NCBI RefSeq assembly: GCF_004102945.1
Contig: NZ_CP019384.1
Span: 1,050,001 to 1,082,000, forward strand
DNA: 32,000 nt
DNA from: Candidatus Velamenicoccus archaeovorus
GTDB lineage: Bacteria > Omnitrophota > Gorgyraeia > Velamenicoccales > Velamenicoccaceae
Reading direction: 5' to 3'
Part shown: piece by piece, positions 12,302-12,875 of the stretch
Position numbering within the stretch: position 1 is the first letter of the stretch
Layout of the letters: each line of letters opens with the position of its first letter
Translations under genes and position numbers: made by a program
The notes under the pieces: model-generated
Told to the model about the DNA's origin: nothing
Seen by the model: only the letters and a program-made list of their open reading frames with translations
Database searches by the model: none

Positions 12302-12432
12302 CAAGCACTCGACCATTTTTTCCTTATCGGAAAACACTGTGGTGGTCGGCACTTGTTCGGCCTGCTCGCCTTATCGGCTCGCCGCGGCCTCACAAGCACT
12401 CGACCATTTTTTCCTTATCGGAAAAAATGGTC
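12302..12432 (-). repeat. 91-bp-period tandem repeat (about 1.4 units) directly downstream of the CCA end of the tRNA-Pro-like 3' half
   Basis: The 33-nt block caagcactcgaccattttttccttatcggaaaa occurs at 12302-12334 and 12393-12425. The hairpin gaccatttttt-ccttatcgg-aaaaaatggtc (12402-12432) includes the encoded GACCA 3' end. Confidence 0.8.
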
Positions 12433-12465
12433 GGGGAGAGCGGATTCGAACCGCTGGCCCCTTGT
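12428..12465 (-). pseudogene. 3' half of a tRNA-Pro-like gene (anticodon-stem 3' strand to an encoded CCA), with no adjacent 5' half
   Basis: The minus strand reads ACAAG GGGCC AGCGG TTCGAAT CCGCT CTCCCCG A CCA. The sequence just upstream of it does not fold into D or anticodon arms. Confidence 0.75.
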
Positions 12466-12549
12466 TCATGACGGCACACAACATCCCGCAAAAACTCATC
12501 CGAACTACCAACACAACATAACTCTGCTAAAGGCTGCTGCTGGCATAAT

Positions 12550-12666
12550 CCCGTGATACAAAAATTAATAGTCGGGGCGAGCGGACTCGAACCGCTGACC
12601 CCTTGAACCCCATTCAAGTGCGCTACCAAACTGCGCTACGCCCCGGACTAATTTTTGTATCACGGG
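12550..12666. repeat. 18-bp perfect inverted repeat bracketing tRNA-Pro(GGG)
   Basis: cccgtgatacaaaaatta (12550-12567) and taatttttgtatcacggg (12649-12666) are exact reverse complements. They lie 4 nt and 3 nt from the tRNA ends. Confidence 0.9.
12572..12645 (-). tRNA. tRNA-Pro (anticodon GGG), CCA not encoded
   Basis: Hand-folded cloverleaf: CGGGGCG TA GCGC AGTTTGGTA GCGC A CTTGA ATGGGGT TCAAG GGGTC AGCGG TTCGAGT CCGCT CGCCCCG A (74 nt). Confidence 0.9.
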
Positions 12667-12875
12667 AAACCCCATTTCCCTCACCTTGAAAAGGTGAGGG
12701 ATTTCCTAAATTTTTATATTGGGGTTGGTCACAAGTGCGCTACCAAACTGCGCTACTCCCCGGACATTTTTTCGCACGGGGAACCCCATTCCCCGCACCT
12801 CTTCACGAGGCGCGGGACTTCCAATATCATAAATCGAGAAAAATCGCAAGTGCGCTACCTCCGCCTGGTCTGGCG
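12615..12875 (-). repeat. tandem repeat, period about 116 bp, about 2.2 units; each unit is the tRNA-Pro 5' half plus its upstream leader
   Basis: Unit starts (caagtgcgctacc) lie at 12615, 12732 and 12847. Units 1 and 2 are colinear throughout: the tRNA part matches with 2 changes, and the leader part has roughly two-thirds identity by eye. Unit 3 is truncated, with a deletion between the two TAGCGCA repeats of the D arm. Confidence 0.75.
12731..12762 (-). pseudogene. 5' half of a tRNA-Pro-like gene (acceptor 5' strand to anticodon-stem 5' strand)
   Basis: The minus strand reads CGGGGAG TA GCGC AGTTTGGTA GCGC A CTTGT and is then followed by unrelated sequence (GACCAACCCC...). Confidence 0.75.

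Follow-up and report, generated by a model that had tools for sequence, protein, structure and literature searches.

The window analysed here is a stretch of 32,000 nucleotides from Candidatus Velamenicoccus archaeovorus (Omnitrophota), and all coordinates refer to this stretch. Its tRNA-Pro locus is the interval between gpsA and doxX on the minus strand, where a 5' half of a tRNA-Pro gene, an intact tRNA-Pro(GGG) gene and a 3' half follow each other in this order. We compared the locus with 15 related gpsA–doxX intervals; gpsA and doxX adjoin tRNA-Pro in all loci. Exact look-ups of the GpsA and DoxX of the window matched no record, and the comparison thus covers related loci but no second assembly of exactly this strain. 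The features, listed in the direction of the minus strand, are the following.

13040..13055, minus strand: fragment D, from an older 5' half (index 1-16; repeat family D6)
12847..12859, minus strand: fragment C, from the same older 5' half (index 19-31), with the junction C+GA (family D7)
12763..12846, minus strand: repeat unit 1, consisting of spacer, hp1, hp2 and an orphan leader (families D5 and D13)
12816-12791, minus strand: hairpin hp1 of unit 1
12791-12781, minus strand: core of hp2 in unit 1, GAATGGGGTTC, an 11-nt copy of the anticodon-loop region in the leader (family D13)
12732..12762, minus strand: 5' half (A-type tRNA-Pro, index 1-31), matching the intact gene of relatives at 31/31 positions
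12646..12731, minus strand: repeat unit 2, consisting of AT-rich spacer, hp1', hp2' and the leader of the intact gene (inverted repeat I16)
12701-12691 / 12687-12677, minus strand: arms of hairpin hp1' of unit 2 (I16)
12676-12668, minus strand: hp2' of unit 2, an anticodon-loop-like hairpin with the core AATGGGGTT
12571..12645, minus strand: intact tRNA-Pro(GGG) (ARAGORN; Rfam tRNA, 61.8 bits)
12549..12567, with its partner at 12649-12667, minus strand: trailer arm of the leader–trailer helix around the intact tRNA (I2, 19 nt, 100%)
12466..12548, minus strand: spacer X', from the trailer helix to the 3' half, homologous to the spacer before the 3' fragment in L084/L085
12428..12464, minus strand: 3' half (A-type tRNA-Pro, index 41-77, with the encoded CCA), a 37/37 match
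12271..12427, minus strand: original trailer of the ancestral tRNA, up to the start of doxX (D2, I7)

The intact gene is presumably functional. It represents the allele that we call B type, which has C6:G68, T48 and G60 and no encoded CCA, and its sequence is the same as that of the tRNA-Pro(GGG) in L001, L004 and L082 (100% identity). The usual allele of the lineage, here called A type, reads CGGGGAG...CTTGA-ATGGGGT-TCAAG...CTCCCCGACCA and is present as an intact gene with the anticodon GGG in six relatives (L083, L084, L085, L086 and L090, with GpsA identities of 67–89%, plus L081). The open reading frames at 12655-13116 (plus strand) and 12706-13140 (minus strand) contain no Pfam family and were therefore considered spurious. 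A scan of the minus strand between 11800 and 13400 for promoter and terminator consensus sequences gave nothing above the shuffle expectation.

Both halves were found where the original prediction had placed them, CGGGGAGTAGCGCAGTTTGGTAGCGCACTTGT at 12762->12731 and ACAAGGGGCCAGCGGTTCGAATCCGCTCTCCCCGACCA at 12465->12428 on the minus strand, with the intact gene between them at 12645->12571. Their resemblance to tRNA-Pro is not due to chance, since blastn-short matched the 5' half at 31/31 positions (E 1e-13) and the 3' half at 37/37 positions (E 3e-17) to the intact tRNA-Pro genes of relatives. The 5' half comprises the 5' strand of the acceptor stem, the D arm and bases 1-4 of the anticodon stem, and it agrees at all 31 positions with the intact gene in L081, L083, L084, L086 and L090. 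The T at 12731, just after the 5' half, is a junction base that is not derived from the tRNA, and the A at 12465, just before the 3' half, is a junction base as well. As had been predicted, the halves differ from the intact gene at index 6/68 (A:T versus C:G) and at index 32/40 (T..A versus A:T). The 3' half differs further at index 48 (C versus T) and index 60 (A versus G), which gives three mismatches to the B gene over the repeat of index 41-77, and it carries the encoded CCA that the B gene lacks.

These stem differences had been read as compensatory changes that unite the halves in one cloverleaf. In the acceptor stem, A6:T68 is the native allele, carried by all of the closest relatives, and the halves do derive from a tRNA-Pro allele other than that of the live gene and are not random debris. 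The covariation in the anticodon stem is an artefact: T32 and A40 are junction bases, and A32:T40 occurs in every intact A-type gene of the relatives. In an alignment of the gpsA–doxX intervals, which had been proposed as a check, the CGGGGAG acceptor strand was recovered as the native allele, but the anticodon stem of the intact A-type genes was CTTGA/TCAAG, not CTTGT/ACAAG. The 5' junction, CTTG-T-GACCAAC, is common to the window, L082 and L086, while the 3' junction, GTGTGCCGTCATGA-A-CAAGG, is common to the window, L082, L084 and L085 and stands unchanged (..GTCATGA+A) behind the intact gene in L084/L085. The identity of the junctions between contigs shows that each fragment is of common descent, and T32 and A40, which recur separately in the relatives, are the junction bases of two independent events. 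The 5' junction has the general form Y+GAC, with T in the 5' half of the window and in L086 and with C in L004, L081, L084 and fragment C of the window; L084 combines C32 with A40, so T32/A40 is not a conserved pair.

The assignment of both halves to one cloverleaf is further contradicted by their separate origins, as each occurs without the other. A 5' half with the same T+GACCAAC junction is located upstream of the intact gene in L086, which has no 3' half, and a 3' half is located downstream of the intact gene in L084/L085, where the single 5' piece present has an interruption in its D loop. Neither half is present in L001, L003, L091 and L115. The 5' half is absent from these four and from L090, all of which retain the tRNA, and is interrupted by an insertion of 80-180 nt in L081, L084, L085 and the window. 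The number of 5' copies is two in the window (one interrupted, one complete) and one in L086, with one interrupted copy each in L081 and L084. The gpsA gene of L082 is 100% identical to that of the window at the nucleotide level, and its locus has one 116-nt unit fewer and a 3' half cut to 11 nt, in an automated short-read (Logan) assembly that could be partly chimeric. The 5' half of L004 (62% GpsA identity) has the Y-GAC junction, and the fragments of L004 and L086 match the tRNA allele of their own genome. A metagenome scan for the narrow pattern of 5' half junction plus hp2 recovered a single locus, L081.

The tRNA-derived pieces upstream of the intact gene recur with a tandem periodicity of ~116 nt (repeat families D3, D5 and D7, with a spacing of 114-117 nt). 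The repeat unit contains tRNA index 1-31, the junction Y-GAC, an AT-rich spacer, hp1, hp2 and a leader. The units are arranged head-to-tail, CACTTG-Y-GA follows both fragment C and the 5' half, and the number of 5' copies differs among close relatives, in agreement with a tandem array. Fragments C and D, the ~116-nt periodicity and the GAATGGGGTTC copy in the leader had not been part of the original prediction. Unit 1 is 90% identical to the unit preceding the intact gene in L084/L085; unit 2 is 71% identical to unit 1, 76% to the unit of L084 and 82% to that of L086, at a non-coding background identity of ~80%. The leader of unit 1, CCCCGTGCGAAAAAATGTC, is orphaned, its cognate trailer GCGCACGGG being retained in L084 and missing from the window. 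Among the relatives, the hp1 stem has been preserved although both of its sides have changed, every unit from the window to L004, L002 and L118 shows the conserved hp2 loop AATGGGGTT, and a GAAACGGGGTTT variant is present in L115 as four copies in tandem. Fragment D sits where the 5' end of the ancestral tRNA lay, and its upstream flank (GGCTCGATGCCGATTT..) is the one located directly 5' of the single tRNA gene in L091. It is parted from fragment C by an insertion of ~180 nt (13039-12860) that is rich in TCCGCC..GGCGGA hairpins; orthologues of fragment C are present in L081, L082, L084 and L085.

The helix formed by the leader and trailer of the intact gene is a perfect 19-bp duplex of -34.6 kcal/mol, compared to a shuffle mean of -8.4, and covaries among the relatives, in which the corresponding helix of the A gene has 15-17 bp. 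A weaker leader–trailer helix surrounds the tRNA-Gly. The predicted complementarity between the outer flanks of the two halves, GAAAAAATG and CATTTTTTC, is real (inverted repeat I4, 12421-12438 / 12756-12773, 18 nt, 89%), and these 9 bp are a vestige of the conserved covarying helix of the A gene. Spacer X' is 81% identical to the spacer of L084/L085 over 80 aligned positions, the last 14 nt being identical. The 3' partial copy (index 41-77, CCA, T6) is placed before the ancestral trailer, which forms three hairpins with CGAUAAG loops, the first stem of which includes the tRNA 3' end CGACCA. This trailer is homologous to the one that directly follows the single tRNA in L003. It is about 98-100% identical to L084/L085, as is the block of 3' half plus trailer, compared to 84% for gpsA and 82% for doxX, making the locus a mosaic.

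On the basis of these sequence comparisons, the halves are very probably non-functional relics of two different earlier tRNA-Pro(GGG) copies in a recombination-prone, mosaic gpsA–doxX locus. The copy number of the 5' units shifts by unequal crossing-over between tRNA-derived repeats of 13-31 nt. The 5' half of the window would be the 5' part of a formerly intact A gene, the leader of which is now orphaned, and we take it to be orthologous to the 5' part of the intact gene in the relatives because the unit upstream of it is 90% identical to that of L084. The 3' half is orthologous to the older fragment that was already located downstream of the intact A gene, as in L084/L085. The present arrangement may have been made by a misaligned homologous exchange, or by a homology-facilitated illegitimate one, with a diverged allele made up of the B-type tRNA with unit 2 before it and its matching trailer and spacer X' behind it. 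One crossover would have been within the 31-nt identity, the other either inside spacer X or the 3' fragment or beyond them. A simple import of B into an A-type locus was considered and dropped: unit 2 is 76-82% identical to the relatives, like the non-coding background, and it is the A-type pieces that are anomalously similar to L084 (90-100%). For these reasons the direction of the exchange is not polarisable, and either segment could be the incomer. Only the B gene would make a tRNA, and the halves would have stayed tRNA-like through repeat turnover or gene conversion and a recent origin, not through selection.

Two observations weigh against relics. With 0 mismatches to the A type, the fragments seem better preserved than expected, and since the L004 copy also matches its own allele, concerted evolution or some selective value would be needed. 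Moreover, the ordered tiling of index 1-31, 31-41 and 41-77 would be more readily accounted for by a single nested insertion into an ancestral gene than by two unrelated duplications. Among the explanations first offered, fossil duplications come closest to the evidence, with the amendment that the live gene is a different allele or cassette and not the product of compensatory changes in situ. Disruption of an ancestral gene by an inserted segment was only loosely right, in that a tRNA-carrying segment now parts the A-type pieces, and the loss of continuity of the ancestral copy is borne out.

An origin as integration scars, which applies mainly to the 3' half and is compatible with dead pieces, is unlikely. 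A tyrosine-integrase element would have entered the anticodon arm of tRNA-Pro and brought its own tRNA portion, the displaced native part being left as a fragment, and almost all of the element would later have been deleted. Many integrases cut around the anticodon loop of tRNA genes, and the breakpoints in the window (after index 31 and before index 41) flank this loop symmetrically. Index 41-77 plus T6 occurs twice in L084/L085, once in the intact gene and once in the 3' fragment, and this perfect direct repeat of 43 nt stands on either side of ~100 nt of non-coding DNA, in the geometry of attL and attR. A regenerated tRNA and a displaced fragment are what integration yields according to passages in two sources (PMC4383910, PMC9897764). 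However, no integrase or other gene was found between or beside the repeats, the neighbours being gpsA and doxX at all loci, and the anticodon loop (index 32-40) is missing from both fragments, whereas conservative site-specific recombination would keep the overlap in both products. In blastn searches against phages and plasmids only the tRNA-Pro body gave matches, and the interval has no viral similarity beyond it.

The ordered tiling would also fit a protein-less, self-targeting cassette that entered the anticodon arm of a resident tRNA-Pro, supplied a replacement tRNA and was swapped between Omnitrophota lineages, which we regard as improbable. Such a "tRNA-in-tRNA" element would consist of hp1, hp2 as an anticodon-arm mimic, a tRNA-Pro within the inverted repeats CCCGYG...CRCGGG-ATTAT, and a spacer; its covarying inverted repeat of 15-21 bp would enclose the complete tRNA, and both the leader–trailer helix and the anticodon-loop mimic would function as signals for processing or recognition. 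What is left of the older copy does lie in order around the complete gene, with the hp2 core GAATGGGGTTC as index 31-41, and the outermost are on ancestral flanks (fragment D with the upstream flank of L091, the 3' half with the trailer of L003). The cassette is also favoured by the same layout in L004 and by the mosaic of segments with 76-100% identity. On the other hand, among the sequences compared neither a second insertion site nor a target-site duplication came to light, nor did the cassette turn up in another genomic context, and the C[AG]CGGGATTA motif is confined to the tRNA-Pro trailers of this clade apart from single matches in L062 and L070. A scan of viral contigs for the hp2 motif AATGGGGTTYCCCGYG gave 23 matches, which were judged to be chance or coding since none was located near a tRNA-like sequence. 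Unequal crossing-over suffices for the 5' copies, the number of which varies between contigs with identical gpsA.

We also find it improbable that the units of 5' half and hairpins have been kept for an action in cis on the downstream tRNA gene, to which they might contribute a module with promoter or leader activity, a platform for processing, or a decoy that mimics the anticodon arm for an enzyme specific to tRNA-Pro. This would account for the two-sided changes that maintain the hp1 stem, the conservation of the hp2 loop to L004, L002 and L118, and the four tandem copies in L115, and the junction creates TTGYGA at 17-18 nt upstream of a conserved T-rich hexamer. However, a sigma-70 consensus scan detected no promoter on the minus strand, and the tRNA is retained in all of the loci named above in which the 5' half is interrupted or absent. 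The hypothesis bears on the hairpins more than on the tRNA halves.

It is extremely improbable that the gene is genuinely split or interrupted, with a long transcript that folds, an inner tRNA that is excised and halves that are ligated or act as two pieces: in favour, the outer leader is paired with the outer trailer, and the two acceptor strands with each other, in the MFE fold predicted for 12415-12800 (z-score -7.2), and CTTGT and ACAAG are complementary in the genome of the window, but the halves rebuild no usable anticodon loop, the only 7-mer with U33 being GUCAUGA (anticodon CAU), an intact isoacceptor gene lies between them, contrary to the expectation for a split gene, the T32/A40 pair is broken in L084, and the halves are not co-conserved, each being singly absent, truncated or interrupted, and thus dispensable, in relatives and L082. 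The ends of the intervening sequence (GACCAACC... / ...CCGTCATGA) have a complementarity of at most 3 bp, and the flanks of the breakpoints form no helix or BHB motif in the sequence or in the MFE fold. Joining at the RNA level, one of the options first proposed, gained no support from ARAGORN or Rfam either: the intron search suggested as a check (-i, up to 600 nt) recognised neither an intron-containing nor a split gene in the halves at the default and 90% thresholds, cmscan at gathering thresholds reported tRNA only and no group I core, and no intron family appeared at E<=10 over 11800-13400. At 80%, ARAGORN made calls that we consider spurious, namely two antisense "tRNA-Lys" and an odd one at reg 820-903 that overlaps the 3' half. 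The layout is not that of a permuted tRNA gene, as the 3' half is not encoded upstream of the 5' half.

The halves should be annotated as pseudogene fragments and not be listed as a split, interrupted or second tRNA-Pro gene, and they provide a cautionary case in which junction bases mimic compensatory changes. Within the Velamenicoccus clade, the interval with gpsA, tRNA-Pro and doxX forms a small hot spot of recombination, both unequal and between lineages, in which the identity of segments ranges from 76% to 100% and that of the adjoining genes is 82–84%. Three conserved non-coding features of the locus appear not to have been described before: the long covarying leader–trailer helix at tRNA-Pro(GGG), which is weaker at tRNA-Gly, the upstream hairpin with the tRNA's own anticodon loop sequence, and the triple CGAYAAG-loop element before doxX. 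They may bear on how ultra-small Omnitrophota process tRNAs that are embedded in gene clusters. Overall, the locus is ordinary but unusually well-documented tRNA-gene debris, of which the leader–trailer helix and the anticodon-loop-like hairpin are the more interesting parts.

Split tRNA genes of the Nanoarchaeum equitans type were reportedly described in archaea by Randau et al. in 2005. As in that type, the 5' half ends and the 3' half starts at the anticodon arm and there are complementary sequences outside the halves, but the present organism belongs to the bacteria, the halves are separated by 265 nt of the same strand that include an intact isoacceptor gene, a BHB motif and a recoverable anticodon loop are lacking, and the halves are not co-conserved. 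Bacterial group I introns occur in the anticodon loops of cyanobacterial tRNA-Leu(UAA) and alpha- and beta-proteobacterial tRNA-Ile/Arg. They resemble the locus in that ~250-300 nt interrupt the anticodon arm of a tRNA gene in a bacterium, whereas the present segment has no group I core and contains a whole tRNA gene, and the exon ends rebuild no loop. The group I intron reported for Ca. Velamenicoccus archaeovorus is located in the 23S rRNA gene (PMC13153191).

The closest parallels are with tRNA gene fragments. Partial tRNA genes next to intact ones are ascribed to element integration or local rearrangement in passages on the Islander database (PMC4383910) and in van der Gulik et al. 2023 (PMC9897764). 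The locus shares with such fragments the perfectly tRNA-like partial copies beside a complete gene of the same isoacceptor, the direct repeat of the 3' part that runs a few bases past the 3' end, a lack of function, and the capacity to mislead annotation. It differs in having fragments on both sides of the gene with no integrase or element between the repeats, in the placement of the 5' fragments in a ~116-nt tandem repeat with two conserved hairpins, and in breakpoints that remove the anticodon loop from both. The head-to-tail repeats, the identical junction and the copy number that differs at identical gpsA are as in arrays shaped by unequal crossing-over, and the match of fragments to the tRNA allele of their own genome in L004 and L086 is as in the concerted evolution of repeats. 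Unlike in general tandem arrays, the unit here is chimeric, joining a tRNA 5' half to the leader region from upstream of that tRNA, and the units within one genome share only 71% identity.

Leader–trailer processing helices are known from rRNA operons, in the form of RNase III stems. For the helix at tRNA-Pro we know of no processing enzyme or cleavage site. Like the rRNA stems, it is a long helix formed from the 5' and 3' flanks of a stable RNA that covaries between species, but it encloses a single tRNA.

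The tRNA-Pro-like pieces all lie on the minus strand in the interval between gpsA and doxX:

13288-14289, minus strand: gpsA, flanking the tRNA interval
13055-13040, minus strand: fragment D, index 1-16 of tRNA-Pro, upstream of the 5' half
12859-12847, minus strand: fragment C, index 19-31 of tRNA-Pro, upstream of the 5' half
12762->12731, minus strand: 5' half, index 1-31 and then a junction base; 31/31 identical to the relatives' intact tRNA-Pro
12645-12571, minus strand: complete tRNA-Pro(GGG) between the halves, found by ARAGORN and Rfam
12465->12428, minus strand: 3' half, index 41-77; 37/37 identical to the relatives' intact tRNA-Pro
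11866-12270, minus strand: doxX, flanking the tRNA interval

Bases are numbered by sequence index 1-77 including CCA, and with nine bases in the D loop the index is the canonical number plus one past that loop. Both halves read exactly as first described, and their match to the relatives' tRNA-Pro is far beyond chance. The first reading missed fragments C and D, a tandem periodicity of ~116 nt (repeat families D3, D5 and D7), a 19-bp perfect inverted repeat (I2) around the intact gene and, in the leader, 11 nt that repeat the anticodon-loop region (GAATGGGGTTC, repeat D13). An 18-nt inverted repeat (I4) takes in both the acceptor strands of the halves and their flanks, GAAAAAATG/CATTTTTTC. A weak likeness (78%) to the tRNA 5' end at 13279-13296 (GGGGCGTAGGGATTTTTG), overlapping the gpsA stop codon, is kept as coding sequence in relatives and was regarded as a chance match. 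Further minus-strand neighbours are a patatin/cNMP protein upstream and homoserine dehydrogenase and a PLP enzyme downstream; a GpsA with 100% identity is listed by NCBI under Candidatus Velamenicoccus archaeovorus, and the closest GTDB representatives in the GpsA protein search were Omnitrophota MAGs.

We compared 15 relatives over the gpsA–doxX interval or the part of it nearest the tRNA, with GpsA percentages taken from protein searches. The "joined" gene is whole in six of them (loci L081, L083, L084, L085, L086 and L090), with GpsA identities of 67-89% for L083 to L086 and L090; GpsA of L081 was not scored, its gpsA 3' end being ~90% identical in nucleotides as judged by eye. This A type reads CGGGGAG...CACTTGA-ATGGGGT-TCAAGGGGCCAGCGGTTCGAATCCGCTCTCCCCGACCA, with anticodon GGG. 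The live gene of the window is of the B type (C6:G68, T48, G60, without CCA) and shows 100% identity to its counterparts in L082, L001 and L004. In L086 an uninterrupted 5' half lies upstream of the intact A gene with the junction CACTTG-T-GACCAAC, exactly as in the window, and the interval contains no 3' half. In L084/L085 the window's 3' half lies ~100 nt downstream of the intact A gene with the same junction, GTGTGCCGTCATGA-A-CAAGG, and the sole 5' piece is broken in the D loop, with C as junction base. The three-part layout recurs in L004 (62% GpsA), where the halves agree with that genome's own B-type gene. The 5' half is present but decayed in L002, as is the 3' fragment in L090, while the intervals of L001, L003, L091 and L115 each hold one tRNA-Pro gene and no extra pieces. 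In L002 (~5430-5480) a short doxX remnant (..GCCATGCGAGCGAAGACGGAGCCGTGTTTTTAGG..) immediately follows the tRNA trailer, so doxX would seem dispensable in part of the clade.

The original prediction had assigned the halves to one cloverleaf from compensating differences in two stems. Every intact gene compared has A32:T40. A junction begins with base 32 of the 5' half, which is T in L082, L086 and the window and C in the 5' pieces of L004, L081 and L084 and in the window's fragment C; another junction ends with A40 of the 3' half. The L084/L085 bases that match T32 and A40 are C and A, and the complementarity in the window is a coincidence with a prior of ~1 in 4. The acceptor pair A6:T68 is the allele that all closest relatives carry. 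The halves are therefore no record of a single cloverleaf. Orthology appears to separate them too: upstream of the 5' half lies a unit with 90% identity to the one preceding the intact gene in L084, so the 5' half is probably the 5' part of a former intact gene, and the 3' half would be an older fragment already behind it. The predicted 9-bp flank complementarity does exist, as a remnant of the A gene's leader–trailer helix, which has 15-17 bp in L081, L083, L084, L086 and L090; the 5' half kept its leader (CCCCGTGCGAAAAAATG), and of the trailer the 3' fragment holds just the first nine bases (CCATTTTTT).

The repeat unit (~116 nt in total) consists of tRNA 1-31, Y-GAC, a spacer, the hairpins hp1 and hp2, and the leader. 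Relative to L084/L085 the locus is a mosaic, with identities of 84% in gpsA, 80% in the non-coding DNA upstream of fragment D, 90% in unit 1, 76% in unit 2, 81% in the trailer plus spacer X (between the intact gene and the 3' fragment), about 98-100% from GTGTGCCGTCATGA through the 3' half and ~150 nt of trailer, and 82% in doxX. Misaligned homologous or homology-facilitated exchange of diverged alleles, in either direction, would have joined A-type pieces to a unit 2–B–trailer segment, with the crossover on one side falling within the 31-nt tRNA identity. An earlier round of the same process may have left fragments D and C, whose D loop is interrupted by 180 nt of hairpin-rich sequence. L091 has the upstream flank of fragment D immediately before its single gene, and L003 has the trailer of the 3' half immediately after its own.

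A contig with gpsA 100% identical to the window in nucleotides (L082; Logan SRR29307520, locus ~4160-4720) has a differently arranged intergenic region, which reflects variation between strains or else a partly chimeric assembly. It lacks one 116-nt unit precisely between two GGTAGCGCACTTG repeats, has an L081-like unit upstream of fragment D instead, and its 3' half is shortened to 11 nt (ACAAGGGGCCA). These differences look like the behaviour of an array under unequal crossing-over, with no selection for the halves. The fragments are nonetheless perfectly preserved, and a Y-GAC 5' half at 62% GpsA distance matches its own genome's allele; we take concerted evolution within the array to be the cause, and a cis function of the repeat units seems an improbable alternative.

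Several non-coding features accompany the tRNA genes:

12649-12667 / 12549-12567: 19-bp perfect leader–trailer helix of the window's tRNA-Pro, -34.6 kcal/mol against a shuffle mean of -8.4
23227-23256 / 23125-23154: weaker tRNA-Gly helix, TCCCGTCA...TGACGGGA, -20.2
12781-12791 and 12668-12676: hairpin hp2, GAATGGGGTTC / AATGGGGTT, upstream of each tRNA or 5' half
12271-12427: three CGAUAAG-loop hairpins (CCGATAAGG x3; CGAYAAG loops) between the 3' half and doxX
12895-12909, 13014-13036, 22968-22985 and 23469-23483: small TCCGCC-N(3-14)-GGCGGA hairpins

The leader–trailer helix of tRNA-Pro(GGG) in the clade reaches -25 to -35 kcal/mol, compared with a median of -9 over 53 tRNAs in all fetched loci. 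Its inner part covaries among relatives (GTGATAC/GTATCAC, GTGCGC/GCGCAC, GTGGCA/TGCCAC, GCGATGC/GCATCGC, GCGGCGCC/GGCGCCGC) and its ends, CCCG...CGGG-ATTAT, are fixed; the helix may signal the processing of tRNAs that lie inside a cluster of co-directional genes. Covariation in hp1 is modest. The hp2 loop is the tRNA's own anticodon loop sequence, is conserved across the clade (L002, L004, L081-L086, L118) and could be an old anticodon-arm remnant or mimic; L115 (~3000-3055) has four tandem GAAACGGGGTTT variants in its place. The first stem of the triple-hairpin trailer takes in the tRNA 3' end CGACCA, and a homologous element lies behind the single tRNA in L003, its last copy overlapping the doxX Shine-Dalgarno. 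This block is about 98-100% identical to L084/L085, against 82-84% for the flanking genes, and has no Rfam match. The hp1/hp2/leader unit (12762-12821, minus strand) matched Rfam Chlorobi-1 RNA at 15 bits (E 0.76), below the gathering score of 50 and probably by chance. The TCCGCC hairpins number four in the window against 0.1 expected, all close to one of the two tRNA loci. Two of them have UUCG loops and the same sequence (TCCGCCTTCGGCGGA), and those at 12895-13036 make up the insertion that breaks the D loop of the older 5' half.

A degraded integrase scar as the origin of the 3' repeat is unlikely and would be compatible with gene debris. Insertion of a cassette into the anticodon arm of a resident tRNA-Pro would leave what is seen, namely pieces of an older copy tiling in order (index 1-31, 31-41 as the hp2 core, 41-77) around a complete gene flanked by inverted repeats; however, the cassette was not found in any other context, nor was any element gene or link to a phage or plasmid, and we consider it a long shot. 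RNA-level joining of the halves, also raised in the original prediction, is very unlikely, since Rfam detected no intron family in the region, the halves gave no call in the ARAGORN intron search, joining could yield just one 7-mer loop with U33, GUCAUGA (anticodon CAU), the intervening sequence has ends that fail to pair and so offers no BHB-like motif, and the comparative data argue against it; the predicted MFE fold pairs the outer strands, which restates their known complementarity.

The original observation thus stands and its interpretation is partly supported. The group I intron reported for Ca. Velamenicoccus archaeovorus sits in the 23S rRNA gene, not in the tRNA-Pro locus (PMC13153191). 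The tRNA-Pro halves are in all likelihood gene debris at a hot spot of recombination, one more case of a type already known.
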